Shown: piece by piece, positions 2,988-34,178 of the stretch
How positions within the stretch are numbered: position 1 is the stretch's first letter
Layout of the letters: every line of letters begins with the position of its first letter
NCBI GenBank assembly: GCA_046734675.1
Contig: JBKPRU010000234.1
Coordinates: forward strand, 1-38,095
Direction: 5' to 3'
DNA: 38,095 bases
Origin: Acidobacteriota bacterium
GTDB lineage: Bacteria > Acidobacteriota > Vicinamibacteria > Vicinamibacterales > 2-12-FULL-66-21
Made by a program: the position numbers and the translations under genes
The notes under the pieces: model-generated
Told to the model about the DNA's origin: nothing
Database searches by the model: none
The model's input: the letters and a program-made list of their open reading frames with translations, nothing else

Positions 2988-4105
2988 TCGTAAGCACGTC
3001 CGACAGTACTCGCGTTCGATTCGTCCTTGGCTCGCTTGCCGCAGCGATTCTGCCGCTTGCTGTCCTGACCGCGACGGTCACGCGTCTGCATCGGCATCAT
3101 CTCGAAACGCTGGCCGCCGAATGGTCCGCGCGGGCGGATCGGGCGGTGCGTGCCGGTCGGGCGACCGAAGGAGTCGACGATTTCCGAAGCGCACTCCTGT
3201 ACGCGCACGAGGATCGCGCACTGCGGCTGCGCCTCGCGCGGGCGCTAGTCGCAGCGCGACGGCCCGCCGAAGCGCGCGGCTACCTGCTCACGTTGTGGAA
3301 CGACGAGCCCGGAAATGGGTCCGTCAACCTGGAGCTCGGGCGCATCGCCGCGCAGGACGGCGCGTCGGACGAGGCCATCCGCTACTACCACGGCGCGGTT
3401 GAAGGCGCATGGGACACCGACGCCGAGCGCCGGCGTCGCGAGGTGCGGCTGGAACTGATCGATTACCTGATCGCTCACGGACAGGCGGAACGGGCGAGGC
3501 CCGATCTCGTCGCTCTCACGTCGGACTTGCCGAATGATGCCGACGGGAGGAAGGGCCTCGCGCGCCGTCTGGCCGACGCGGGCCTGTACGCGCAGGCGGC
3601 CACCATCTACGAGCACGTCCTCGAGCAGTCGCCGACGGACGCGGATGCGTTGGCGGGCGCGGGCGAGCTTGCGTTCCGCTCGGCGCAGTATGCGGTTGCC
3701 GCACGCTACCTGCAGCGTGCGGTCACAGAGGGCGCCTCTTCCCCCAACGTCCGCCGCGACGCGGAAATCGCCCGCCTCGTGCTCGATCTGGATCCCTTTC
3801 AACGCCGTCTGGCTCTCTCGGCTCGTGCCTCTCGCACCACTCGAGCCTTTGCGCTCGCCAGCCGGCGGTTGGCGGATTGCGTGCGGGCACACCCCGACTC
3901 GGCGCGGCTTGCGGCATTGACTCCCGAGACTGCTCTGTCCTCCCGCGCGGCTACCCGGTCGCTCGTCCGACATCCCGACGACGTCGACGTCGTCATGGAG
4001 GCCGCGTTTGCGATCGAGATCGCGACCGCGGAGGTGTGCGGAGAGGCGGACGGTCCAGACCGGGCTCTGTCGCTGATCGCCGCGGCGCGGAAGGCGGAGC
4101 GGTGA
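2984..4105 (+). CDS. Membrane-anchored tetratricopeptide repeat protein
   Basis: One N-terminal hydrophobic helix followed by Ala-rich helical TPR-like repeats (EAIRYYHGAV; QAATIYEHVLEQSPTDADALAGAGELAF). GTGA overlaps with both flanking ClC genes. Confidence 0.8.
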   Translation: MIVSTSDSTRVRFVLGSLAAAILPLAVLTATVTRLHRHHLETLAAEWSARADRAVRAGRATEGVDDFRSALLYAHEDRALRLRLARALVAARRPAEARGYLLTLWNDEPGNGSVNLELGRIAAQDGASDEAIRYYHGAVEGAWDTDAERRRREVRLELIDYLIAHGQAERARPDLVALTSDLPNDADGRKGLARRLADAGLYAQAATIYEHVLEQSPTDADALAGAGELAFRSAQYAVAARYLQRAVTEGASSPNVRRDAEIARLVLDLDPFQRRLALSARASRTTRAFALASRRLADCVRAHPDSARLAALTPETALSSRAATRSLVRHPDDVDVVMEAAFAIEIATAEVCGEADGPDRALSLIAAARKAER

Positions 4106-5796
4106 GGTCCCGGGGAAGTGCGCGTCCGCTCTTCGCGCTGCGGGAGCCGCAGCTCTTTCTCGTGCTGGCGCTCCTGATTGGCGTGTTCTCCGGACTGCTG
4201 GTCGTGTGCTTTCGCGTGGCGATCGAGTCCACGCGCCTGTGGCTCCTTGGCTCCGGGCTGAAGCCGCCGACCTCGCGTCTGTTCGTCGTTCTGCCGGCCA
4301 TGGGACTGGTCGTCGCGCTCCTGGTGCAACGATTCTTTCCTGCCGCGCGCGGCAGCGGCGTGAATCAGACCAAGGCCGCCGTGTACATCTACGACGGCTA
4401 TATCTCGTTTCGCACGGTCATCGGTAAGTTCGTGACGAGTGCGCTGGCGATCGGCAGCGGTCAATCGCTGGGGCCCGAGGATCCGTCCCTCCAAGTCGGC
4501 GCCGGGATCGCATCCGCGATTGGCCGCCGCGTGGGACTGTCGCGCGATCGCCTGCGACTGATCGCGCCGCTTGGCGCCGCTGCCGGCCTGGCCGCGGCCT
4601 TCAACTCGCCGATCACCGCCGTGCTGTTCGTCATCGAAGAAGTGATCGGGACGTGGAGCGCCGTCGCCCTCGGCGCGATCGTGCTGGCGGCCGTCTCGAG
4701 CGCGCTGGTGCAGCAGTGGTTCCTTGGCGACCAGCCGCTGTTCCGCGTTCCCGTCTATCACTTCACCCACGCAAGCCATCTGATCGTGTATGCGGTTTTG
4801 GGGGCGGTTGGCGGCGTCGCCGCGATCGTGTTCGTGAAGCTCGCGCTGTTCGCGCGTGCGGCGCTGCGGCGCCTGCCTCCCTGGACGCGTTACTTGCAGC
4901 CGGCCATTGCCGGTGCGGCGATCGCCGTGATCGCGATGCGATACCCGCAGGTCACCGGCGCCGGCTACGAATACGTCGACCTGGCAATGCACGACCGTTA
5001 TACGTGGGTGACGCTGGCCGTGCTCGCGGCGCTGAAAATCATCGCGACGGTGGTGTCGTTTTCGAGCGGCACGCCGGGCGGGCTCTTCGCGCCGACGCTC
5101 TTCATCGGCGCGATGGTTGGCGGCGCGGTCTGCGGCGCCACGCGCGTCCTCGTTCCGTCCTTCGACGCGACAACCGGCGCCTTCGCGCTGATTGGAATGG
5201 GGACGCTCTTTGCGGGGATCCTTCGCGCGCCAATCACGTCGGTCTTCATGATCGTCGAGGTCAGCGGGAGCTATTCGATTGCGCTGCCGCTGATGATCTC
5301 CAACACGATTGCGTATCTCGTCTCGCGCCGCTACCAGCGCGACGCAATGTTCGACGTGCTCGCCCACCAGGACGGCGTCCATCTGCCGTCGATGGAACAA
5401 CAGCGGGAGGCCGCGGTGCAGCGTGTCGAGGACGCGATGCGCGGCGTGCCGCCGCTGGTGATGTCCGCCGGCGACACCGTCGAAGATGCATTGACGGCGG
5501 CCGACCGGGCCGGCGAAATTCTGATCGCGTCGCGTCCCGGTGGATGGTCGATGATGCGCCGCGTCGATCTCGAGCATCTCGCGAGCGAGGGGCGGCGGAC
5601 CTCGCGGCTGGAAGGCGTGCTGGCGCTTGCCACGTCTCTCCCGACTGTCTATCCCGATCAGCCGCTGGACGTCGCGCTGCGGTCGATCGGCGACCATCCG
5701 TATGTGCCGGTCGTCCACCGCGCCAATGCGGCGCGCCTGGTCGGCGTCATTGGCCTCGAGGAAATTCTCGACGCCTATCGACGCGCCGGCGCGTAG
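4102..5796 (+). CDS. ClC family chloride channel/antiporter with CBS domains (paralog 2)
   Basis: Motifs GSGVNQ, GQSLGPEDP, AAAFNSPI and GTPGGLFAP, plus a CBS tail. Start set at the GTG overlapping the TPR gene stop. Confidence 0.92.
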   Translation: MRSRGSARPLFALREPQLFLVLALLIGVFSGLLVVCFRVAIESTRLWLLGSGLKPPTSRLFVVLPAMGLVVALLVQRFFPAARGSGVNQTKAAVYIYDGYISFRTVIGKFVTSALAIGSGQSLGPEDPSLQVGAGIASAIGRRVGLSRDRLRLIAPLGAAAGLAAAFNSPITAVLFVIEEVIGTWSAVALGAIVLAAVSSALVQQWFLGDQPLFRVPVYHFTHASHLIVYAVLGAVGGVAAIVFVKLALFARAALRRLPPWTRYLQPAIAGAAIAVIAMRYPQVTGAGYEYVDLAMHDRYTWVTLAVLAALKIIATVVSFSSGTPGGLFAPTLFIGAMVGGAVCGATRVLVPSFDATTGAFALIGMGTLFAGILRAPITSVFMIVEVSGSYSIALPLMISNTIAYLVSRRYQRDAMFDVLAHQDGVHLPSMEQQREAAVQRVEDAMRGVPPLVMSAGDTVEDALTAADRAGEILIASRPGGWSMMRRVDLEHLASEGRRTSRLEGVLALATSLPTVYPDQPLDVALRSIGDHPYVPVVHRANAARLVGVIGLEEILDAYRRAGA

Positions 5797-7485: not shown

Positions 7486-7523
7486 TGATGGACTGCGCGA
7501 ACAGAGAAGGAGGTTCAGGGGGA

Positions 7524-8134: not shown

Positions 8135-8224
8135 GGAGAGATGGCCGAGTGGTCGATGGCGGTGGTCTTGAAAACCACTGTACCCGGAAGGGTACCGGGG
8201 GTTCGAATCCCTCTCTCTCCGCCA
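8135..8224 (+). tRNA. tRNA-Ser (anticodon TGA), encoded CCA
   Basis: GGAGAGA/TCTCTCC acceptor stem, GTGGT-CT-TGA-AA-ACCAC anticodon arm, long variable arm GTACCC-GGAA-GGGTAC, GGTTCGAATCC T-loop and GCCA end. Confidence 0.97.
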
Positions 8225-8254
8225 GCCTTCGTCGCCTGCGGCGACTTCGGCTGG
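8222..8254 (+). repeat. Hairpin immediately 3' of the tRNA (CCAGCC-TTC-GTCGCC-TGC-GGCGAC-TTC-GGCTGG)
   Basis: Two 6-bp stems with a symmetric TTC/TTC internal loop and no U-tract. Confidence 0.5.
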
Positions 8255-8316
8255 ACGTAGACTGCGCCGCGCTCCGAAGGCGCCGTGCCTCGTGCTTCTC
8301 CTCCGCCGCCCGGATA

Positions 8317-8325
8317 TGGCATAAT
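8317..8325 (+). promoter_or_regulatory. Extended -10 promoter TG-G-CATAAT for the leader peptide
   Basis: The CATAAT box ends 9 nt before ATG 8335 and there is no SD, so the transcript is near-leaderless. Confidence 0.6.
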
Positions 8326-8334
8326 CGCCGGACC

Positions 8335-8406
8335 ATGTTCCGCGGTCTGGTGATTCGCCTCGTCCTTACCAGCGTCGGCATTAACCTGCCGACGCGCACG
8401 GGGTGA
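8335..8406 (+). CDS. Branched-chain amino acid attenuator leader peptide MFRGLVIRLVLTSVGINLPTRTG (23 aa)
   Basis: 9 of 23 residues are Leu/Val/Ile (core LVIRLVL), plus 3 Thr. It uses AT-ending codons (ATT twice, CTT). Its stop codon lies in the antiterminator arm. Confidence 0.8.
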   Translation: MFRGLVIRLVLTSVGINLPTRTG

Positions 8407-8477
8407 TGTAGCCAGACGCAACACGATCAGGTTTTCAAGGGCCATCACCCTCACCGGTGATGGCCCTTTTGTTTTTT
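8345..8477 (+). promoter_or_regulatory. Ribosome-dependent transcription attenuator
   Basis: Mutually exclusive pairings: GTCTGG(8345-50)/CCAGAC(8412-17); antiterminator GGGTGATG(8401-08)/CATCACCC(8443-50); and the terminator at 8437-8477. There is also an internal hairpin GCGTCGGCA/TGCCGACGC (8372-8395). Confidence 0.8.
8437..8477 (+). terminator. Intrinsic terminator of the attenuator
   Basis: 13-bp stem AAGGGCCATCACC / loop CTCACC / GGTGATGGCCCTT, followed by TTGTTTTTT. Confidence 0.9.
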
Positions 8478-8492
8478 CAGGGAGGGACGACC

Positions 8493-8666
8493 ATGAACGT
8501 CAGCCGATTCGATGCGGACGCGGCCGCGGTACCCGCAGACGGTACGACACGGCCCCAATCAGACGGGGACGTCCGTCACGCGATGCGCGCGGCTCCGGAG
8601 TATGGAGACGACGACCAGCAGGCCGAAGAACCGGCGGAGGAGCCCGGCTACGGCCACGGCGTCTAG
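8493..8666 (+). CDS. 57-aa acidic, probably disordered small protein ending in GYGHGV (same C-terminus as LeuA)
   Basis: Strong SD GGAGG at 8481-8485 and GC3-rich codons. Sequence MNVSRFDADAAAVPADGTTRPQSDGDVRHAMRAAPEYGDDDQQAEEPAEEPGYGHGV. Confidence 0.75.
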   Translation: MNVSRFDADAAAVPADGTTRPQSDGDVRHAMRAAPEYGDDDQQAEEPAEEPGYGHGV

Positions 8667-8683
8667 TCGTCGGACGCAGGCGA

Positions 8684-8965
8684 TCACAATCGCGGCGCGA
8701 CGCGAACCTGCGCTTCGGCGGACGTGATCACCGTGTGGACCTCGAAGTCCACGAGGTCGGACCAGTTTGCCATCCACTGATCGAGCAGCGCGCGATCCTC
8801 TGTCTCCATCAACTGGAAGCAGCGCTCCAGTCGCTCGTCCACCCAGCTGTTCACGTACCGCACGCCCTCGGGGGCGAGACGCCCGCGATCGCGGAACCGG
8901 CGATACACGGACGCCGCGTCACCTCCCTTGAACCGCTCGACGATCATGTAAAGCGTCGTCGCCAC
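8684..8965 (-). CDS. DUF3303-like small protein
   Basis: LYMIVERFKGGDAASVYRRFRDRGRLAPEGVRYVNSWV...CFQLME...WMANWSDLVDFEVHTV. TAGAAT lies 6 nt before the GTG. Confidence 0.8.
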   Translation of the reverse strand: MATTLYMIVERFKGGDAASVYRRFRDRGRLAPEGVRYVNSWVDERLERCFQLMETEDRALLDQWMANWSDLVDFEVHTVITSAEAQVRVAPRL

Positions 8966-24810: not shown

Positions 24811-25761
24811 GTGGGCGTTGTGATGCTGCCGTTGAATCGGAAACGCGGGGAGGAAGACGTCTCGGGCGGCGGGCCGCGCGTCAACGTCGTGGCGGCGGTC
24901 ATGCTGCTGCTGCCCCTCGTCCTTGGCATCGCCGCGTCGGTGGCGGTGGGAAATCCCCTGCCGGCGATTGCCGGCGTCGCGATCGGGCTCGTGCTGATGC
25001 AAGCGCCGCGGGTGGCGAAGCAGTGGGAACGCGGCATCGTGCTGCGGCTCGGACGCTACGTCGGACTGCGCGGCCCGGGACTCTTCTGGGTCGTACCGCT
25101 CGTCGACTCGGTCGCGCGCTGGATTGATCAACGCGTCATCACGACGAGCTTCGCCGCGGAGCAGACGCTGACGTCGGACACGGTGCCAGTGAACGTCGAC
25201 GCCGTCCTGTTCTGGCTCGTGTACGATCCGGAGAAAGCCGCGCTCGAAGTGCAGGAGTACCAGCAGGCGGTGAGCTGGGCCGCGCAGACGGCGCTCCGCG
25301 ACATCATCGGCCGCACGTCACTCGTCGATCTGCTCAAGGGGCGCGAGCGGATTGAAGAGGAGCTCCAGCGGCTGATCGATCAGCGATCGAACCCGTGGGG
25401 CGTCACCGTGCAGTCGGTCGAGATGCGCGACGTGGTCATCCCCGAGTCGCTGCAGGACGCGATGTCACGCGAGGCGCAGGCGGCGCGCGAAAAGCAGGCG
25501 CGCATCATCCTCGGGCAGGCGGAAGTCGAGATCGCGCACTTGTTCGACAAGGCCGCCCAGTCGTACCGCGACAACCCGACCGCGCTGCACCTGCGCGCGA
25601 TGAACATGCTCTACGAAGGACTGAAGGAGAAAGGCGCGTTGATGCTCGTCCCGAGCACCGCGGTCGAATCGATGGGGATGGGAGGACTGCTCGGCGCGGC
25701 GGCAATGCGCCAGCAAGCACTCGCGGACTCGTCCACGCAGCCGGGGCAGCCGAAGGGCTGA
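24811..25761 (+). CDS. SPFH/stomatin-like (slipin) membrane protein
   Basis: TM hairpin, QWERGIVLRLGRY...GPGLF, AQTALRDIIG, WGVTVQSVEMRDV, AMSREAQAAREKQAR, PTALHLR. Confidence 0.92.
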   Translation: MGVVMLPLNRKRGEEDVSGGGPRVNVVAAVMLLLPLVLGIAASVAVGNPLPAIAGVAIGLVLMQAPRVAKQWERGIVLRLGRYVGLRGPGLFWVVPLVDSVARWIDQRVITTSFAAEQTLTSDTVPVNVDAVLFWLVYDPEKAALEVQEYQQAVSWAAQTALRDIIGRTSLVDLLKGRERIEEELQRLIDQRSNPWGVTVQSVEMRDVVIPESLQDAMSREAQAAREKQARIILGQAEVEIAHLFDKAAQSYRDNPTALHLRAMNMLYEGLKEKGALMLVPSTAVESMGMGGLLGAAAMRQQALADSSTQPGQPKG

Positions 25762-25767
25762 CGCCGG

Positions 25768-26823
25768 TTACCGTTCGATCCGCGACACGATCGCGCGTGC
25801 GAGCGCGCTGCAGGACGCGGGGCCACCCAGGTCCCGCGTCAACTCTCCGCCGGCGGTCACCTCCGCGACCGCCGATTCAATCAGCGACGCCTCCTGTTCC
25901 AGCTTCAACGCATGCCGCAGCAGCATCGCGGCTGAAAGCACCGCGCCGATCGGATTGGCGATATCGCGTCCTGCGATGTCGGGAGCGGAACCATGCACTG
26001 GCTCGAACAAGCCTGGTCCGTCGCCGAGACTCGCCGAGGGCAGCAGCCCCAGCGATCCAACGACCGCGCCCGCTTCGTCCGACAGGATGTCGCCGAACAT
26101 GTTTTCGGTCACGATGACATCGAACGACGCGGGGGCAAGCGTGATGCGCATCGCGCACGAATCGACGAGCATGTGTTCGAGCTTGACGTCCGGAAACTCC
26201 GACGCGACTTCACCAACCACGGTGCGCCACAGGCGTGACGTCTCGAGCACGTTCATCTTGTCGACGGAGGTTACGCGTTTGTGACGCCCGCGCGCAGCGG
26301 TAAACGCGACGCGCGTGATGCGTGCGATCTCTTCGCGCGAGTAGCGCATCGTGTTCCACGCGGACGCGCCGTCCGGCGCGATGCCCCGCGGTTCGCCGTA
26401 GTACAAGCCGCCGGTCAGCTCACGGACGACCAGCATGTCGGTGCGCCCGAGCACTTCCGGTTTCAGCGGACCGGCGCCTTCGAGGCCCGGCCACACCCGC
26501 GCCGGACGCAGGTTCGCATAGAGCCCTAGCTGCTGCCGCAGTTGCAGCAGCGCGGATTCAGGCCGTTGTCCGGGAGGACGGTTGTCGAACTCCGGGGCGC
26601 CGACGGCGCCAAGCAGGATTGCGTCCGCGGCCTTGCACGCGGCCAGCGTCTGGGGAGGAAGCGGCGGCAGGTCCTGGCGGATCGCCGCGCCGCCAATCGC
26701 GAACGTCTCGAAATCGAAATGGTGATCGAAGCGGTGGGCGGCCGCAGCGAGCGCGGCCTGCGCTGCCGCGGTGACTTCAGGCCCGATGCCGTCACCTGGC
26801 AGCAGAACGATACGACTGTGCAC
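25768..26823 (-). CDS. leuB: 3-isopropylmalate dehydrogenase
   Basis: LPGDGIGPEV, LYANLRP, VRELTGGLYYG, NMFGDILSDEA, EPVHGSAPDIAG. Confidence 0.96.
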   Translation of the reverse strand: MHSRIVLLPGDGIGPEVTAAAQAALAAAAHRFDHHFDFETFAIGGAAIRQDLPPLPPQTLAACKAADAILLGAVGAPEFDNRPPGQRPESALLQLRQQLGLYANLRPARVWPGLEGAGPLKPEVLGRTDMLVVRELTGGLYYGEPRGIAPDGASAWNTMRYSREEIARITRVAFTAARGRHKRVTSVDKMNVLETSRLWRTVVGEVASEFPDVKLEHMLVDSCAMRITLAPASFDVIVTENMFGDILSDEAGAVVGSLGLLPSASLGDGPGLFEPVHGSAPDIAGRDIANPIGAVLSAAMLLRHALKLEQEASLIESAVAEVTAGGELTRDLGGPASCSALARAIVSRIER

Positions 26824-26838
26824 CGGTGATCAGTCTAC

Positions 26839-28098
26839 TTACACGCCGTGCCCGTAGCCAAATTCCGCCGGCGTCGTCCCGAGTTCCTGAATCGCCGCTC
26901 CTGCGTTCTGCGACGGCGCCGGCGCGGTGGCGGGCGGCGCGGTCCCGAGCGTCTGCGACACGATGTAGGCGAGGTCGCGATCGCTCACGACTTTCTCGCG
27001 GTCCGCGTGCTCGATCACGGCGCGATACACGCGATCGAGATCCCGGCGTTCGAGCGTCAACCCGATCTGCTCGCAGCGGCTCTGCACGGCGTGACGTCCG
27101 GAATGCTTGCCGAGCACGAGCGTCGCCTGCGGCACGCCGACTTCCTCCGGTCGCATGATCTCGTAGGTGCGGCGATCCTTCAGCATGCCGTCCTGGTGAA
27201 TGCCTGCTTCGTGCGCGAACGCATTGCGGCCGACGATGGCCTTGTTCGCCTGCACGCCTTCGCCGGTGAGCGCGGTGAGCAGCTGGCTCGAGGCGTAAAT
27301 CTCGCGCGGGTTGATGTTGGTCGTGAACGGCAGGCGATCCGCGCGCACGCGCGTCGCCATCACGAGCTCTTCGAGCGAGGCGTTCCCCGCACGCTCGCCG
27401 ATGCCATTGATCGTGCACTCCACCTGGCGCACGCCGGCGCAGACCGCCGAGAGCGAGTTCGCCACCGCGAGGCCGAGGTCATCGTGGCAGTGCGTGCTGA
27501 ACGTCACCTGGTCGGAGCTCGGGACGCGATTGATCATTCCGTGGAAGAAGTCTTTGATTTCATCCGGCGTCGAGTAGCCGACGGTATCGGGAAGGTTGAT
27601 CGTCTTCGCGCCCGACTGAATCACCGCCTCGATCACGCGCCAGAGGAAATCCGGATCGCTGCGCGTCGCATCCTCTGCCGAGAACTGCACGTCGTCTGTG
27701 TACTGACGGGCCAGGCGAACCGCGTCCATGGCCGTACGGAGACACTCTTCACGGGTCATCCGCAGCTTGCGCTCGAGATGCAGGTCGGAGGTGGCGAGGA
27801 ACACGTGAATGCGACGGCGCGGCGCGGGCGTCAGCGCCCAGGCGGCACGCTCGATGTCCTTGGCGTGGCAGCGCGCGAGCGCGGCAATCACCGGTCCGCG
27901 GATGTGCGTCGCCACCATGCGGACGGCCTCGGCGTCCGCGTCGGACGCGATCGGGAAGCCGGCCTCGATGATATCCACCCCCAGGGCCGTCAGCTGATGG
28001 GCGAGCTTCAACTTCTCGTCGATGCGCAACGAAAAGCCCGGCGCCTGCTCGCCGTCGCGCAAAGTCGTGTCGAATATCGTCAACCGGTCAGCGGACAT
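26839..28098 (-). CDS. leuA: 2-isopropylmalate synthase, short form without the C-terminal regulatory domain, ending in a low-complexity tail and GYGHGV
   Basis: [56 protein letters not shown]. 419 aa; SD GGAGG. Confidence 0.93.
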
Positions 28099-28140
28099 GG
28101 ACCCTCCTGGATCGGTTGTACCCGCCGGCCACCCCCTAAG

Positions 28141-28161
28141 TCCAATTTATATTTATTTGGA
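28141..28161. promoter_or_regulatory. AT-rich inverted repeat TCCAA-N11-TTGGA in the leuA/LysR divergent region; candidate LysR site
   Basis: Seen directly, in a strikingly AT-rich intergenic stretch. Confidence 0.5.
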
Positions 28162-28178
28162 TTAAATTAGATGCGTTT

Positions 28179-29051
28179 ATGCAGCTCCCGGATCTTGCTG
28201 CTTTTCTGGCCGTCGCCTCCGAACGGAGCTTTTCAGCCGCCGCCCGGCGGCTGCACCGCACCCAGCCCGCGATCAGCCAGGCGGTCCGCCGCATCGAGGA
28301 AGAGCTCGGCGAACGCCTCTTCGACCGATCGTCTCGAGATGGAACACTGACGGAAGCCGGGCGCTTGCTGCAGGACTACGCGCAGCGGCTGCTCGGGCTC
28401 GCCGCAGAAGCCCAGGTCGCCGTCCGCGAGCTCCAGGAAGTCCGCAAAGGGCGCGTCATCATCGGCGCCAACGAAGCGGCGGTCCACACCCTGCTGCCGC
28501 ACATCGAGAAGTTCTCGAGCTCACACCCCGGGGTCGCCATCGATGTGCGGCGCATCTCGTCGCGCCAGATGTCCGCGGCGGTGCTCGATCGCTCCATCGA
28601 CTTCGGCGTCATGACCTTTCAGCCGTCCGACCGCGGCATCCAGGCGCTGTCGCTCGGCACGGACGAAATCGTCCTCCTCACCGCGCCGATGCATGGGCTC
28701 GCAAGCCGCAAGCGCGCAACGCTCGAAGAAGTCGGACGGGAGGCCGTCATCGCGCATAACGATCCGTCGCCGACGCGCGACCGGGTCCTGCGCGCCTATG
28801 AACGAAAGCGGACCGCCATCAACATCCAGATTTCGCTGCCCAGCCTCGACGGCATCAAGCGCGCGGTGGAGATGGGGATCGGCGTCGCGCTGCTGCCGCG
28901 GCGTTGCGCGCTGACCGAGATTGCGCGCGGCAGCCTGGTTGCGGTGAAGGTGCCGGAGCTCGGCGCCACGCGCCAGGTGCGGCTCGTCTACCGAAAGACC
29001 GGCGAGCGCAGCCGCGCTGCGGAGGCCTTTCTCGAAGTGATCAGAGGATAG
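28179..29051 (+). CDS. LysR family transcriptional regulator, divergent from leuA
   Basis: FLAVASERSFSAAARRLHRTQPAISQAVRRIEEELGERLFDR...LTEAG, plus a substrate-binding domain. Confidence 0.95.
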   Translation: MQLPDLAAFLAVASERSFSAAARRLHRTQPAISQAVRRIEEELGERLFDRSSRDGTLTEAGRLLQDYAQRLLGLAAEAQVAVRELQEVRKGRVIIGANEAAVHTLLPHIEKFSSSHPGVAIDVRRISSRQMSAAVLDRSIDFGVMTFQPSDRGIQALSLGTDEIVLLTAPMHGLASRKRATLEEVGREAVIAHNDPSPTRDRVLRAYERKRTAINIQISLPSLDGIKRAVEMGIGVALLPRRCALTEIARGSLVAVKVPELGATRQVRLVYRKTGERSRAAEAFLEVIRG

Positions 29052-29060
29052 TCGACGCGA

Positions 29061-29672
29061 TCACCACGTGTTGGTGACGTAGGGCAGCCGCTTCGCGACG
29101 CCGCGCACCTCGTCGAAATTCTCGAGCAGGAGACCGGTCGCGTCCCAGCTGCCATCGAGAAAAGACTCGCGCGTTGCCGACGGAAGCGCAATCTCGTACT
29201 CCTTCCCCGCCGCCTTGACGCGCATCGACCGGAAATCGATCGTCACCTCAGTCGAGGGGTTCGCTTCCACCGCATCCATCAACGCATCGAGCGTGGCGCG
29301 CGACGCGGTCGGGCACGGCATGCCGAGGGCGACGGAGTTGCCGAAGAAGATCTCCGAGAAGGACTGCCCGAGGACGGCGCGGATGCCGCGCCGGCGAATG
29401 GCCTGGGGCGCGTGCTCGCGCGACGATCCGCACCCGAAATTCGAGTGCACGAGCATGATTGACGCGCCCGCGTACTTCGGGTTCGAGACCGGATGCGGCA
29501 TGCCGCCGCGCGCGTCCGCTTCATGCCGGTCGTCCTCGAAGAGATGATCCTCGAGTCCTTCGAAGGAAACCGACTTCAGGAAGCGGGCCGGGATGATGCG
29601 ATCGGTGTCGATGTCGTCGCCGCGCATCGGCAGCGCGGTGCCGCGGATGTCGGTGAGGCGCTCAACGGCCAA
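29061..29672 (-). CDS. leuD: 3-isopropylmalate dehydratase small subunit
   Basis: [37 protein letters not shown]. Confidence 0.95.
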
Positions 29673-31059
29673 TGGTGGCCTCCGCTGCCGCGAACTCCCG
29701 CACGTCCACGACCTCTCCCGCTACGGCCGCGGCCGCGACCATTGCGGGACTCATGAGCAGCGTGCGCCCGGTCGGACTTCCCTGGCGTCCCTTGAAGTTG
29801 CGGTTCGACGATGACGCGCAGACCTCGCGTCCTTCGAGACGATCCGGATTCATCGCGAGGCACATCGAACAGCCGGCGCCGCGCCACTCGAACCCGGCTT
29901 CGGTGAACACGCGATCGAGGCCCTCGCGCTCGGCCGCAGCCCGCACGCTCTGCGATCCGGGGACGACGAGCGCCTTTACGTGCGGCGCGACGTGGTGGCC
30001 GCGCAGGATCCGCGCGGCCTCGCGCAAATCCGACAGGCGTCCGTTCGTGCACGAGCCCACGAACGCGACGTCGATCTTCGTGCCTTTCAACGGCTGCCCG
30101 GGACGGAAGCCCATGAACTCGAGGGCCTCCTGATCGCCGGTCGACGGGATCCGCTCGTCCACCGCGAGGGACTGCCCGGGATTGATCCCCCACGTCACCG
30201 TCGGCTGAATCGCCGCCGCATCCAGCGTCATTTCGTCGTCGTACGACGCGTTCGCGTCCGACGCCATCGACGACCACCACCGGCACGCGCGCTCGAAGTC
30301 GTCGCCGACGGGTGCGAACGGGCGTCCGCGCAGATAGGTGAACGTCGTCTCGTCGGGATTGACGTAGCCGACTCGCGCGCCGCCTTCGATGGACATGTTG
30401 CAGATCGTCATCCGCTCGTCCATCGACATGCGTTGGATGGTGTCGCCGGCGTATTCGTAGGCGTAGCCGACGCCTCCCTTCACGCCGAGGCGGCGAATGA
30501 TCTCGAGGATGACGTCCTTCGCGTAGACGCCGGGCTGCAGCCGTCCCTTCACGGTGATGCGCCGCACCTTCAGCGGATCCATCGCCAGGCACTGCGACGC
30601 GAGCACGTCGCGCACCTGTGAGGTGCCGATGCCGAACGCAATCGCGCCGAACGCCCCGTGCGTCGACGTGTGGCTGTCGCCGCACGCGATCGTCATGGCC
30701 GGCTGCGTCAACCCGAGCTCGGGGCCAATCACGTGCACGATGCCCTGCTGCCCGCTCGAGAGATCGAGCAGCCGGATCCGATGCTCGTGCGTGTTGCGCT
30801 CGAGCGACGAGAGCATTTCCTCGGCCATGAGGTCGATGAAGGGCCGCCGCTGATCGCGCGTCGGCACGATGTGGTCGACCGTCGCGATGGTGCGCTCGGG
30901 GAAGGCCACCGCCGCGCCGCGCGCGCGCAACATGTCGAACGCCTGCGGGCTGGTCACTTCATGAATGAGATGGAGGCCGATGAAGAGCTGCGTCTGCCCG
31001 TTCGGCAGGCGGCGGACGGTATGCGCGTCCCAGACCTTGCGGAGAAGCGTCGTGCCCAT
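29662..31059 (-). CDS. leuC: 3-isopropylmalate dehydratase large subunit
   Basis: [51 protein letters not shown]. Start at [13 protein letters not shown]. Confidence 0.96.
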
Positions 31060-31087
31060 GGTGAAGCGCCGATCGTAGCACGAGGGG

Positions 31088-31154
31088 GCGAGAGGCGATG
31101 GGCGAGGTGCGGGGCGCGGGGAGCGACGGCGCGAGGGCGACGGCGACGGCGACC
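31088..31154 (+). repeat. Degenerate tandem repeat: six GCGNNNN heptamers then four GCGANN hexamers
   Basis: gcgagag gcgatgg gcgaggt gcggggc gcgggga gcgacgg c gcgagg gcgacg gcgacg gcgacc. Confidence 0.7.
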
Positions 31155-31307
31155 GGTCGGACGGCTTCGACGTCCCCGCTAACTCGCCGCCGCACACGTC
31201 CCGACCTCGGCCGGCAATTTGCCTTCATTGCGCCTCGCATCCGTGCACCGCGGTTTTTCCCAGAAAAAAACGGCTGGTGGCAAGAACCTCGTACTCAGGA
31301 GGATTTC

Positions 31308-31605
31308 ATGAGTGCAATTACCAGACTTTCGCGATCTTCAAGCGTGGCAGGTCGGCATGGAGGTCGTCGAGCTCACTTACCGGCTGACGGCTGACTTTTC
31401 ATCGCGCGAATTGAAAACGCAGCTCGAGATCGCGCTGCGACTGCGATTCATACGTCCGGCAGCACCCGATGCGCACGGCGCAAGCCGTACAGAAGCTTCT
31501 GCGGACGATCGAGTCCGCTGCGGAGATCGCGTGCGAATGCGATTAGGGCTTTCGCTGTCGGGATGGGTGCTCAGTCCGGCGTTTCTGCTTCGCCTGCTCG
31601 CGTAG
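31308..31605 (+). pseudogene. Four-helix-bundle (23S rRNA IVP/bAvd-like) gene remnant
   Basis: SD GGAGG and ATG 31308 (MSAIT) are out of frame with DFRDLQAWQVGMEVVELTYRLTADF, which joins directly to ELKTQLEIALRLRF. The family's central QMRRAAVSIPSNIAEG-type segment is absent. The 3' limit is approximate. Confidence 0.75.
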
Positions 31606-31722
31606 CTGATGCTCTTTCATCGCCGCGCGTTCTTTGTTCTGCTCGTGCAGTGTCCCGTCGCCAGGATGCTCGCGGCCCGCGACTTTGTATTGTCCAGGGT
31701 TGACGTTGATGTGTTTGCTCAT
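31543..31722 (-). CDS. Small basic hydrophilic protein (59 aa), hypothetical
   Basis: MSKHINVNPGQYKVAGREHPGDGTLHEQNKERAAMKEHQLREQAKQKRR...; plausible codon usage. Confidence 0.6.
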   Translation of the reverse strand: MSKHINVNPGQYKVAGREHPGDGTLHEQNKERAAMKEHQLREQAKQKRRTEHPSRQRKP

Positions 31723-31784
31723 GATGAAACGGTACTCAAATCGATTGCCACGTCGGACGCGCGCCGACATGGCTCTCAGCCGCT

Positions 31785-31847
31785 CTCTCGCTTTTCGCTC
31801 TTCGCTTTTCGCTCTTCGCCCGTCGCCCGTCGCCCGTCGCCCCTCGC
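31785..31847 (-). repeat. Nine tandem heptamers NNNTCGC (GCGANNN on the minus strand)
   Basis: ctctcgc ttttcgc tcttcgc ttttcgc tcttcgc ccgtcgc ccgtcgc ccgtcgc ccctcgc. Confidence 0.85.
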
Positions 31848-31875
31848 GTCTCCCACGTCGGCGCGCACACACCGC

Positions 31876-31884
31876 TGCTATAAT
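31876..31884 (+). promoter_or_regulatory. Extended -10 promoter TG-C-TATAAT for pcrA
   Basis: Consensus TATAAT at 31879-31884, 14 nt before the ATG. Confidence 0.65.
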
Positions 31885-31898
31885 TTGAGGGTCCCTCC

Positions 31899-34178
31899 AT
31901 GCACTTCCTCGAGAAACTGAATCCCGAGCAGCGTGAAGCTGTACTGCAGATCGATGGGCCGCTTCTCATTCTCGCGGGAGCGGGATCGGGTAAGACGCGC
32001 GTCATCACCTACCGCATCGCATACCTCATCGGCGACGCTCATGCTGAGCCCGGTGAAGTGCTGGCGGTGACCTTCACGAACAAGGCTGCGGGTGAGATGC
32101 GGGAGCGCGTCACGTCCGTGCTCGGCGAGGACTGCAACGGCGTCTGGCTGTCCACATTCCACGCACTCTGCGCGCGGCTGTTGAGGCGTGAGGCCCCGGC
32201 GATCGGACTCACGCGCGACTTCGTGATTTACGACTCGTCCGATCAGGTCGCGGTGGTGAAGCAGGCGCAGCGCGAGCTTGGCATCGACGACAAGCTCGTG
32301 CCGCCGCGCGCGGCGCTCTCGCGCATCAGCCATTGCAAGAACCGCATGGAAGGACCCGATGCGCTGCGCGGCGCGTGGAACCTGCGCGACGAGCAGATCG
32401 CGAAAATCTACGAGCGGTATCTGCGGGCGCTCGCCGACAGCAACGCGCTCGACTTCGACGACCTGCTGCTGAAGACCGTCGAGCTGTTCGAGACGCAGCC
32501 GCACGTCCGCGAGAAGTACGGCCGCAAGTTCAAATACGTCATGGTCGACGAGTACCAGGACACGAACCGGCCGCAGTACATGCTGATCAAGCGGCTCTCG
32601 GAGATCCACCGCAACCTGGCGGTGGTCGGCGACCCCGACCAGTCGATCTACAAGTGGCGCGGCGCTGACCTCCGGAACATCCTCGACTTCGAAAACGACT
32701 TCTCCGATGCGAAGATCGTCCGCCTCGAGCAGAACTACCGCTCGACGCAGGTGATCCTCGACGGGGCGACGGCCGTCATTCAGCAGAACCGCAATCGCAA
32801 GGACAAGCGGCTGTGGACCGACCGCAAGGGCGGACGCAAGATCGTCTACTTCCGCGGCGGTGACGAGCTCGAAGAGGCGGACTTCATCACGCGCACCATC
32901 AAGCAGGCGCGCGCCGAGAACGTCGACACGATGATGGCGGTTCTCTATCGCGTCAACTCGCAGTCGCGCGCGATTGAAGACTCGTTGATGCGCGAGAGCA
33001 TCCCCTACAAGATCATCGGCGGCGTGCGCTTCTACGAGCGCAAGGAAATCAAGGACGCGCTCGCCTACCTGAAACTGATCATCAACCCGCATGACGACGT
33101 GAGCCTGCGCCGCGTGATCAACGTCCCGGCGCGCGGCATCGGCAAAGGCGTCATGGATGCGCTGCATGCCATCGACCCCGAGGCGGTCGTTGCCGACGCG
33201 CCGCCGCTGCTTGCCGCGGGACTCGCCGACGTCAGCTCGGCGCGATCGCTCTGGGCAAAGCTGGTCTACGCCGTCGACGAGAGCAAGCTCCCGAACCGCG
33301 CGGTCACGTCGCTTCGCGCCTTCCGCGATCTCATCGTCGGCCTCGCCGAGGCCGCGCGGACCGAGTCGGTCTACACCACCATCGGCAAGATGCTCGATCG
33401 CAGCGGCTATTTGAACGACCTGCGCGACGAGAACAGCGAAGAGGCGAACGAGCGGATCGAGAACTTGATGGAGCTCGCGTCGGCCGCGAAGGAATACGAG
33501 TCGCGCGAAGCGGAGGCCTCGCTCGGCGGATTCGTCGATCGCCTGTCGCTGCTCTCTGAAGCCGACGAGGAGTCGGGCACGCGCGAAGCCCGGGTCTGGC
33601 TGATGACGATGCACGCGGCGAAAGGGCTGGAGTTCCCAATCGTGGTCATCGCCGGCATGGAGGATGGCCTGTTCCCGCACTCGCGGTCGAACGAAGACCA
33701 GGAGGAGCTCGAGGAAGAGCGCCGCCTCTGCTACGTCGGCATGACGCGCGCGGAGTCGCGCTTGATTCTCACCGGCGCAGCGCGGCGCCGCGTCTTCGGC
33801 GAGTATCAGTCGACCACGCCGTCGCGCTTCCTCGACGAGATTCCCGGCGAGCTGATCGAGCGCGTGATGCCGGCCTACTCGTCAGCGCCGCAGGGCAGCT
33901 TCCAGCACGCGCACTACGAGTTCAGGACGAATCCGTACGGGCGCAAGGGAAAGGGCGCGCGGTTTCAGGAGGACTCGCCGGCTTATTCGTACGAGGACGA
34001 AGACCAGACCCCCGGCGGCGGTCTCCGCCCCGGGATGCGCGTGCGCCACGCGCAGTTCGGGGTAGGCACGGTGCTGTCGGTCGAGGAGCACACGGACGAT
34101 CTGAAGATCACCGTGCGCTTCAATTCGGTCGGACCGAAGAAGTTGCTCGCGAAGTTCGCGAAGCTCACGCCGGCATAA
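31899..34178 (+). CDS. pcrA: ATP-dependent DNA helicase PcrA/UvrD
   Basis: LAGAGSGKT, TFTNKAA, VDEYQDTN, VGDPDQSIY, LEQNYRST, TMHAAKGLEF, EERRLCYVGMTRA, and a C-terminal Tudor-like VRHAQFGVG. Confidence 0.95.
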   Translation: MHFLEKLNPEQREAVLQIDGPLLILAGAGSGKTRVITYRIAYLIGDAHAEPGEVLAVTFTNKAAGEMRERVTSVLGEDCNGVWLSTFHALCARLLRREAPAIGLTRDFVIYDSSDQVAVVKQAQRELGIDDKLVPPRAALSRISHCKNRMEGPDALRGAWNLRDEQIAKIYERYLRALADSNALDFDDLLLKTVELFETQPHVREKYGRKFKYVMVDEYQDTNRPQYMLIKRLSEIHRNLAVVGDPDQSIYKWRGADLRNILDFENDFSDAKIVRLEQNYRSTQVILDGATAVIQQNRNRKDKRLWTDRKGGRKIVYFRGGDELEEADFITRTIKQARAENVDTMMAVLYRVNSQSRAIEDSLMRESIPYKIIGGVRFYERKEIKDALAYLKLIINPHDDVSLRRVINVPARGIGKGVMDALHAIDPEAVVADAPPLLAAGLADVSSARSLWAKLVYAVDESKLPNRAVTSLRAFRDLIVGLAEAARTESVYTTIGKMLDRSGYLNDLRDENSEEANERIENLMELASAAKEYESREAEASLGGFVDRLSLLSEADEESGTREARVWLMTMHAAKGLEFPIVVIAGMEDGLFPHSRSNEDQEELEEERRLCYVGMTRAESRLILTGAARRRVFGEYQSTTPSRFLDEIPGELIERVMPAYSSAPQGSFQHAHYEFRTNPYGRKGKGARFQEDSPAYSYEDEDQTPGGGLRPGMRVRHAQFGVGTVLSVEEHTDDLKITVRFNSVGPKKLLAKFAKLTPA

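Follow-up and report, generated by a model that had tools for sequence, protein, structure and literature searches.

At positions 8317-8477 of a 38,095-nt stretch of the Acidobacteriota contig JBKPRU010000234.1 (hereafter the window; its own genome, G000, is represented by an 83% complete assembly), we identified an element that is probably a leader-peptide transcription attenuator of the leucine/branched-chain type. Our best reading of the sequence comparisons is that the element belongs to a previously undescribed and largely order-specific family with one shared platform. A preliminary description of the window had proposed the layout of an ilv/leu attenuator. This layout is now supported by an order-wide platform, by a match between leader composition and downstream gene, and by covariation among segments 2, 3, and 4 of the putative switch, but one part of it, the anti-antiterminator pairing, was not recovered in relatives.

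In the window, the element comprises an extended -10 promoter, a 23-codon leader open reading frame (ORF) with an LVIRLVL core, and a 13-bp intrinsic terminator with a U-tract, all three of which the preliminary description had placed correctly, with coordinates ~1 nt off in places (Table 1). The terminator is the sole terminator-like site on the + strand between positions 7500 and 9500, where both strands together hold 3 such sites against a shuffle mean of 1.0. The proposed antiterminator arm was likewise present: GGGTGATG (8401-8408) contains the leader stop codon and is complementary to CATCACCC (8443-8450) in the 5′ arm of the terminator. Segment 2 includes the leader stop UGA (8404-8406) plus an overlapping AUG, followed by UAG. 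Put differently, the arm GGTGATGTAGCC (8402-8413) carries UGA and UAG in two frames, as UGAUG and then an AUG-UAG start-stop pair, and leaders in either frame end within it; this start-stop pair might hold a terminating ribosome on segment 2. Among the putative control codons, CTT (Leu11) accounts for 6% of the Leu codons in 14 window genes. A consensus scan found no -35/-10 pair, and a good -35 was not seen before TGGCATAAT. Four close relatives (L002, L003, L054, and L126) carry TG-n-CATAAT 7-9 nt 5′ of the leader ATG, and a fifth locus (L118) has TCGATAAT instead, 11 nt 5′ of the ATG; family start codons lie 7-12 nt 3′ of TGGCATAAT- or TGTGGTCTCCT-type motifs.

Table 1 Positions of the attenuator parts, of the tail-bearing genes, and of other features in the window
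Feature	Positions	Strand	Characteristics
Extended -10 promoter	8317-8325	+	TGGCATAAT (sequence)
Leader ORF	8335-8406 (ATG 8335, TGA 8404-8406)	+	MFRGLVIRLVLTSVGINLPTRTG, 23 codons plus TGA; sequence, translation agrees with the ORF list
Putative control codons	8347-8367	+	Leu5 Val6 Ile7 Arg8 Leu9 Val10 Leu11 (CTG GTG ATT CGC CTC GTC CTT; sequence)
Segment 1	8355-8363	+	UCGCCUCGU, codons 7-10; pairs with ACGGGGUGA (8398-8406) in the ribosome-free minimum-energy fold
Inner hairpin	8372-8395	+	GCGUCGGCA-loop-UGCCGACGC, codons 13-20; enclosed by the segment 1:2 arms in the fold
Segment 2, antiterminator 5′ arm	8400-8413	+	GGGGUGAUG-ua-GCC; 9+3 pairs with 8440-8451 (GGC-CAUCACCCU)
Intrinsic terminator	8437-8468	+	13 pairs (8 G-C), 6-nt loop 8450-8455, tail TTTTGTTTTTT
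Segment 3, terminator 5′ arm	8437-8449	+	AAGGGCCAUCACC (fold)
Segment 4, terminator 3′ arm	8456-8468	+	U-tract to 8477
Shine-Dalgarno sequence	8480-8486	+	GGGAGGG (sequence)
57-aa acidic ORF	8493-8663, stop 8664-8666	+	Ends EEPGYGHGV (sequence)
2-isopropylmalate synthase, short form	26839-28098	-	419 aa; NF002086, 601 bits against a cut-off of 532
leuB	25771-26823	-	leu cluster
leuD	29064-29672	-	leu cluster
leuC	29665-31197	-	leu cluster
LysR-family gene	28179-29048	+	Divergent from the window LeuA gene
tRNA-Ser(UGA) gene	8135-8224	+	Ends 110 nt before the leader ATG
Two voltage-gated chloride channel (CLC) genes	1131-2984, 3877-5793	+	With CBS domains; close together

When positions 8226-8680 were used to search 41 related genomes, 12 matched some part of the query. 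The leader region was matched in only two of them, both of the same genus (G003 and G001), at 77% identity. The G003 match runs from the leader through the small ORF, and its leader reads MFCGLVIRLVLTGVGIRVPTRTG; the G001 match stops at the terminator, its leader reads MFRDLLLTLGLISVGIHLPACTG, and its small ORF, found by eye, is followed by a convergent gene as in the window (also read by eye). Both genomes keep the -10, the leader, the hairpins, and a small ORF ending EEPGYGHGV between flanks that differ, so that conservation of the leader in relatives, on which the preliminary description had made its interpretation depend, was observed. Several remoter genomes matched the terminator part only.

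A larger set of elements came from two further searches. First, an exact pattern of segments 2 and 3, with GGTGATGTAGC fixed, was scanned over genome contigs and found in at least 119 stretches; a full terminator was present in 53 of the 123 pattern matches listed (51 once duplicates were removed). The labels of the listed loci L013-L092 are Vicinamibacterales, Vicinamibacteria, or Acidobacteriota, except for a Solibacteraceae bin and a bin labelled Bifidobacterium. Second, the 3′ platform was turned into a covariance model (R1). Within the order, 73 of the 151 genomes searched contained a match, at a very uneven rate across families: 2/11 in the window's own family, as compared to 11/12, 12/12, and 11/11 in three others. 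When R1 was applied to a 151-genome sample of the phylum, six genomes matched: five belong to the order, G000 among them, and the sixth lies outside. G000 holds one platform copy, and a relaxed search of its 83% complete assembly finds no further one. Six of the 29 model-found loci duplicated earlier ones, and 74 distinct elements were examined in total.

These 74 elements are built alike at their 3′ end. Near-fixed features are 12 bases (GGUGAUGUAGCC), the terminator arms, and the U-tract, while the ~70 nt upstream are wholly different between classes. Every element has a T-rich tail, and in 67/74 an ORF starts on the same strand within 120 nt (median 23); the remaining seven are cut loci, frameshifted assemblies, or elements with longer gaps. 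With this placement, and with 1-4 R1 matches per genome, a transposon or repeat origin of the platform was rejected. An ORF of 14-45 codons could be called in 71/74 elements, with its stop between 32 nt before and 12 nt after the start of segment 2. These leader ORFs mostly end on UGA, and at times on UAG five bases on in the other frame. Open frames are common in such GC-rich DNA, however, so that callable ORFs on their own prove little. A variant of the platform (GGATGATG / CATCATCC / GGATGATGG, leader ..HLLLVRVLLLVG..) was seen at locus L239 in a genome from another class of the phylum (G306).

The case for translation of these ORFs, and for amino-acid supply as the signal that they sense, is made most strongly by the match between the leader and the gene behind it. 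For this comparison, downstream ORFs were clustered and cluster representatives were named with Pfam and NCBIfam; leaders were called automatically, which left three elements without a callable leader and a few visibly wrong-frame calls in the set. The downstream genes encode ABC exporters or ATPases (22 elements), homoserine dehydrogenase (15), 2-hydroxyacid dehydrogenase (6), HAD hydrolase (4), dihydroxy-acid dehydratase (IlvD, 3), a class I tRNA synthetase (2) which we take to be IleS from its DGPPYANG / DGPPFAT motifs, class IV (branched-chain) aminotransferase (2), a LysR regulator (2), an MFS transporter (2), and prephenate dehydratase (1), while a small ORF ending GYG[HY]G[VI] comes first in 28 elements. 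Leucine makes up 20% of the leaders before small ORFs (n = 26) versus 5% of those before ABC genes (n = 22; Mann-Whitney P ~8e-8, with relatives not being independent). In the six leaders that stand immediately 5′ of hom, threonine averages 18% (median of the other leaders, 8%), and no other leaders of the set are as rich in Ile as the two before IleS (..RISLISIISAGI.. and ..ISIIGIG..), with 15% and 22%. Valine fractions of the IlvD leaders are 32%, 23%, and 3%, the last from a mis-called leader, and both aminotransferase leaders are Leu-rich. A look at the genes behind homologous leaders, as suggested in the preliminary description, therefore gave enzymes (IleS, hom, IlvD, and aminotransferase) that match the leader bias.

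The second line of evidence is covariation. Of the cells at terminator pair positions in 50 distinct sequences, 96.6% hold a pair. For the elements found by pattern, the antiterminator core is fixed by construction, so that its flanks alone are informative. The pair flanking the core is kept in 44 of 50 sequences (GC 22, GU 12, AU 8, and CG 2) and the next pair outward in 24 of 49 (CG, GC, UA, and GU); the observed flank covariation score was reached by 0 of 500 shuffles. In the model-found set, segment 2 has A for G (GGAUGAUG) in 10/29 loci. Eight of these 10 carry the matching C-to-T/U change in segment 3 (CAUCAUCC), and among these eight, segment 4 is also changed from G to A in five, with a terminator G-U pair left in three. 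Where segment 2 has G, segment 3 has C in 18 of 19 loci. In these alignments, segment 3 co-varies with both of its alternative partners, as an attenuator requires.

Folding of the window element gave a geometry as expected for such a switch. RNA 8330-8478 folds at -73.1 kcal/mol, while 200 shuffled versions gave -45.6 ± 3.9 (z -7.0), and none of them equalled the real sequence. The minimum-energy fold leaves the terminator hairpin free-standing, and in it the Gly4-Leu5-Val6 codons supply a segment, GGUCUGGU, that is paired to GCCAGAC (8411-8417), next to the antiterminator arm as the preliminary description had stated. The alternative structures it had asked to see folded were obtained by masking a 28-nt ribosome footprint on RNA up to 8455, i.e., before segment 4 is made. 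With the A site at codon 5, 6, 7, 9, 10, 11, or 14 (7/7 positions tested in 5-14) the 2:3 helix forms with its 9+3 pairs, and with the A site at codon 16, codon 18, or the stop it does not form. In these masking folds, segment 2 thus becomes available when the ribosome stalls on the control codons and is occluded once the ribosome has reached the stop codon. The inner hairpin between segments 1 and 2 has a nearly invariant stem and a variable loop in 15 Leu-type relatives, and may serve as a polymerase pause hairpin.

The mechanism that we infer, from the transcription start and leader translation through the kinetic competition between folds and the amino-acid response to any activity of the small protein, would run as follows. 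Transcripts would have only a few bases 5′ of the leader AUG and would be engaged by a ribosome at once. If charged Leu, Val, and Ile tRNA were ample, this ribosome would reach the UGA inside segment 2 and cover that segment; after release, segment 1 could take up segment 2, and 3:4 pairing would form the 13-bp terminator and stop transcription at ~8470-8477. If the ribosome instead stalled on the Leu5-Leu11 codons, it would cover segment 1 and leave segment 2 free to pair with segment 3 before segment 4 exists, and the polymerase would continue into the 57-aa ORF.

Several observations weigh against this interpretation. Taken as a whole, the window leader is only marginally enriched in Leu, Ile, and Val (9/23 codons versus a 24% background, P ~0.08); its core is richer (6/7 codons, P ~0.02 after correction for 17 windows). 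Because the leader's own content is only marginal, the weight of the evidence comes from relatives and not from the window alone, and these relatives are not independent samples, with the antiterminator core fixed by the search pattern in 51/74 elements. The leader ATG stands 9 nt past the -10 with no Shine-Dalgarno sequence, and the leader mRNA is therefore probably leaderless or nearly so, a conclusion drawn solely from the 7-12 nt spacing to -10-like motifs. Once the RNA is complete, none of the 10 masking scenarios has a fold of lower energy than the terminator; read-through would therefore depend on a putative kinetic control of the kind that decides between folds in classical attenuators. 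Segment 1, which is predicted to act as an anti-antiterminator through a 9-bp helix with 8398-8406 in the window, does not keep its pairing register in relatives: for 15 Leu-type elements, RNAalifold returned the terminator, the inner hairpin, and one stem of 3 bp, without the 1:2 helix. Nor did 1:2 pairing discriminate real from shuffled upstream sequence, with ≥6 of 9 bases paired in 58/72 real elements and shuffled means of 5-8. As the stop codon lies inside segment 2, a terminating ribosome can cover that segment unaided by segment 1. Six RNA runs each contained ~4% of the sampled words, and the four that were examined all consist of assembled contigs. In these, pieces from relatives (85-95% alike) lie over 8317-8421, and one contig spans 8364-8476 and runs on into a downstream ORF, but such contigs cannot show starts, ends, strand, or level, and may stem from DNA carry-over.

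A further point against amino-acid sensing as the general role is that the leaders before ABC exporter, MFS, and HAD genes and one PheA gene have this platform too, yet their composition does not obviously favor a cognate amino acid, hence the platform is not specific to amino-acid sensing. The window leader might accordingly belong to an attenuator that senses something other than the charging of branched-chain tRNA, its hydrophobic codons being incidental; candidates would be nascent-peptide arrest via the conserved ..SVGI..LPT.TG end, general translation stress, or a drug. Exporter leaders such as MTLTRTWKFSIAS.. and MKFTHVSEYQVHP.., in which no single amino acid is favored, speak for this alternative, and so does the C-terminal half of Leu-type leaders, which is more conserved than their Leu run. 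These conserved C-terminal codons form the inner hairpin, however, and its stem is invariant while the loop codons change, so that conservation at the RNA level explains them. In addition, a ribosome at or after codon 16 leaves segment 2 unfreed in the folds, and the Leu, Ile, Val, and Thr bias tracks the downstream enzyme. We thus consider a different signal unlikely for the window element. At L004, L013, L014, L016, L018, L072, L078, and L142, the platform stands before MFS transporters or ABC exporters, either ~610-aa fused permease-ATPases or separate ATPases, behind Arg/His/Thr-rich leaders of 24-31 codons (MTLTRTWKFSIAS.., MFVHISLRAHDT.., MKFTHVSEYQVHP.., and MKTFT..). In two relatives (L145 and L147), the same platform precedes a LysR gene behind a Val-rich or Phe/Leu/Val-rich leader.

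The RNA itself, rather than a translated leader, could also be the functional product. Under this reading, the ~145-nt transcript would act on its own as a small RNA, made up of an unchanging terminator module at the 3′ end and a targeting part at the 5′ end that varies, its short ORF would remain untranslated, and the 57-aa gene would have its own promoter. The very stable fold (z -7.0), the terminator being thermodynamically favored in every scenario, the constant 3′ module beside a variable 5′ part, and a leader lacking a Shine-Dalgarno sequence all fit such an RNA. It would not account for the same-strand ORF found within 120 nt downstream of 67/74 elements, for leader amino-acid content that tracks the downstream gene, or for the concerted change of segments 2 and 3 (8/10), which is needless in a plain terminator; the 14-45-codon ORF callable near segment 2 in 71/74 adds to this, weak as it is alone in GC-rich DNA. 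There is also no Rfam match: tRNA was the only family at gathering in the window, with no match to a leader family (Leu_leader and Thr_leader), and a search of 8226-8500 at E up to 10 gave a best E of 0.97, DapZ at 17.5 bits against a gathering threshold of 56, and nothing relevant. Altogether, a small RNA appears highly improbable.

Finally, the 23-aa hydrophobic peptide could itself be the product, as a membrane micro-protein or toxin-like peptide, with the hairpin ending its transcript or that of tRNA-Ser. The peptide, with its hydrophobic core, is conserved in the genus, and the tRNA-Ser gene ends 110 nt upstream, yet this core is broken by Arg8, the leaders that the family combines with this platform extend from Thr-rich to Arg/His-rich ones, and the stop codon is kept inside the antiterminator arm. 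The element in G003 moreover has no tRNA gene in the 300 nt read 5′ of it, so that tRNA-Ser and the element are unlinked there, and a terminator that merely ends the tRNA-Ser transcript was rejected. A peptide product is therefore barely credible, and we return to a leucine-type attenuator and to the gene that it would control.

The preliminary description was right that the gene downstream is a 57-aa ORF, and that a convergent gene follows 17 bp after its stop (a DUF3303 gene ending at 8684). It also called the attenuator an orphan with no biosynthetic enzyme downstream; the lack of a biosynthetic link that this implies was not supported, as the small ORF ends in GYGHGV like the window's 2-isopropylmalate synthase (LeuA), as homoserine dehydrogenase or 2-hydroxyacid dehydrogenase follows the small ORF in relatives, and as the tail is found fused to a branched-chain aminotransferase behind a Leu-rich leader. 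Since the small ORF carries the LeuA tail, the switch belongs to leucine/branched-chain control. Neither the leader nor the 57-aa protein has a family in Pfam or NCBIfam; eight homologues of the protein are unnamed, and so is its best match in the protein Atlas (score 0.81). Across 25 aligned homologues, only M1, E50, G52, Y53, G54, G56, and V57 are invariant (tail E-x-G-Y-G-x-G-V), and the rest is variable and rich in Pro, Asp, and Glu. Third positions of the tail codons vary freely while the residues are fixed. The product of the small ORF is a disordered acidic peptide carrying the LeuA tail GYGHGV. LysW-type amino-group carriers, known from the lysine pathway of Thermus and Sulfolobus, are likewise small and acidic with a conserved C-terminal motif, and the first enzyme of that pathway is a LeuA homologue. 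The likeness of the 57-aa protein to these commonly described LysW features is a resemblance only: unlike LysW, the protein has no zinc-finger cysteines, and it ends in Gly-Val rather than in an acidic residue.

Among the ORFs downstream of platform elements, 29 were flagged as tail-bearing, one of which is a fused aminotransferase (L150). Small tail ORFs followed by homoserine dehydrogenase or D-isomer 2-hydroxyacid dehydrogenase were seen at L037, L051, L067, L091, L096, L098, L102, L129, L144, and L146; L049, L054, L059, L074, L077, and L126. At L096 and L102, the small-ORF stop overlaps the homoserine dehydrogenase start (GTGTGATG).

In G000, a six-frame scan found two ORFs that end in the tail, the small ORF and the LeuA gene at 26839-28098 on the minus strand. 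The NF002086 match of this LeuA stretches over model positions 4-386 of 516, up to about residue 385; the final ~34 residues include a low-complexity linker and end EFGYGHGV. Long-form 2-isopropylmalate synthases have a C-terminal regulatory domain, LeuA_dimer (PF08502), with a role in leucine feedback. The window LeuA matches the catalytic part of the long form, and has LeuA_dimer replaced by a variable linker and the invariant GYGHGV. No match to LeuA_dimer was found in G000 (83% complete) or in five near-complete relatives, compared to matches in 14/14 control genomes. As the preliminary description had noted, no attenuator is visible before leuA or leuC: the minus strand has no terminator-like hairpin from the leuC start (31197) to the scan end at 32500, and its terminator-like sites in 25500-32500 lie inside leuA and leuD only.

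A census of the tail, using a degenerate DNA pattern for the tail and stop codon across the 151 genomes of the order, gave 73 matches in 68 genomes, all with a true stop and none with TGG, as compared to ~13 for a reversed-pattern control. The 69 tail ORFs examined comprise 49 short LeuA, 2 branched-chain aminotransferases, 1 amino-acid kinase (aspartokinase-like), 1 unclassified ORF, and 16 small ORFs, 3 of which resemble LeuA fragments. The non-LeuA carriers at L174 (G062), L184 (G039), L185 (G035), and L223 (G129) end GYGHG[VI], and the 296-aa ORF at L223 could not be assigned a class. GYGHGV is invariant in 48 aligned LeuA sequences. Outside the order, the pattern was found in 3 of ~276 sampled phylum genomes (L240-L242, family f64); two of these have an intact reading frame, and there the tail closes a LeuA encoded directly behind an ilvC-like gene; the third, whose frame is garbled, has a similar end. 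Searches of the literature, with subscription journals and supplements outside their scope, returned no description of the attenuator family or of the GYGHGV tail, and a full-text search for the string GYGHGV (again outside subscription journals) returned no paper.

By the listed positions, 13 true small tail ORFs occur in the 151-genome sample, and a platform match immediately precedes 11 of them; the leaders read there are Leu-rich. LeuA is tail-less in all four small-tail-ORF genomes read (G131, G153, G109, and G162); a fifth, G164, had no LeuA match at the threshold used. G039 has a Leu-rich leader before an aminotransferase that itself ends GYGHGV, and in G162 and G107 the small ORF starts like an aminotransferase N-terminus. 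From these arrangements, the conserved unit seems to be a Leu-type attenuator followed by a tail-bearing protein. G000 is unusual in having a tailed LeuA plus the mini-protein, and is alone among the sampled genomes with a true small tail ORF in showing a second tail match.

These patterns allow a tentative proposal for the 57-aa protein, which is possibly the LeuA tail as a separate, trans-acting copy whose synthesis is confined to Leu-tRNA shortage. The tail would then be a control handle on a LeuA lacking its regulatory domain and, in some genomes, on the branched-chain aminotransferase and an aspartate-kinase-like enzyme. Speculatively, such control could act through a partner, a protease, or docking back on the enzyme, and the mini-protein would activate these enzymes or vie for that site as a decoy. 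An AlphaFold2 model of LeuA from the 48-sequence alignment has a mean pLDDT of 82 and values <50 in the tail (393-419), with no docking site readable. Complex predictions of two LeuA chains (1-385) with the small protein (26-57) scored 0.40, 0.03, and 0.02 against a mark of 0.32, and were not used either way. If the proposal is true, tRNA charging would be coupled to enzyme activity or stability by a peptide instead of an allosteric domain, and the fused-versus-split pattern, with either a tailed LeuA alone or a small tail ORF and a tail-less LeuA, would be the evolutionary trace of this coupling.

Classical attenuation is a textbook mechanism that has been worked out in few phyla, with the enterobacterial leu (leuL), ilvGMEDA, ilvBN, and thr leader-peptide attenuators (Rfam Leu_leader and Thr_leader) as the reference systems. 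As in these, the family described here combines a short leader ORF and clustered Leu, Val, or Ile codons with mutually exclusive antiterminator and terminator, a stalled ribosome would select the antiterminator, and different leaders serve different amino-acid genes. It departs from them in having no sequence or covariance-model likeness (Rfam), in a window leader that is probably leaderless with its stop codon inside the antiterminator arm, and in combining one near-identical platform with many unrelated leaders and genes, both within a genome and across the order. The first regulated gene also differs, as it encodes a 57-aa tail protein and no enzyme. The Staphylococcus aureus ilv-leu operon is reportedly controlled by a leucine-rich attenuator peptide (PMC5794164), i.e., a Leu-rich leader for branched-chain genes in a non-proteobacterium as here, but one that controls the biosynthetic operon itself. 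In Actinobacteria, Seliverstov et al. 2005 (PMC1262725) describe candidate leader-peptide attenuators for ilvB and for Streptomyces trpS and leuS, and thereby extend classical attenuation beyond Proteobacteria and to aminoacyl-tRNA synthetase genes, comparable to the Ile-rich IleS leaders found here. The two cases differ in phylum and have no common sequence, and according to that study (PMC1262725), ileS is preceded there by T-boxes rather than by leader peptides.

Taken together, these results describe a large and internally consistent attenuator family in an abundant and poorly studied soil lineage. With one expression platform and exchangeable sensor peptides, before Leu, Ile, Val, and Thr genes as well as exporters, the family offers a test bed for evolution by module swapping. 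GYGHGV, in turn, is an undescribed C-terminal module that occurs both on a LeuA without feedback domain and as a separately regulated mini-protein, a distribution that suggests a hitherto unrecognized level of regulation acting on the synthesis of branched-chain amino acids.

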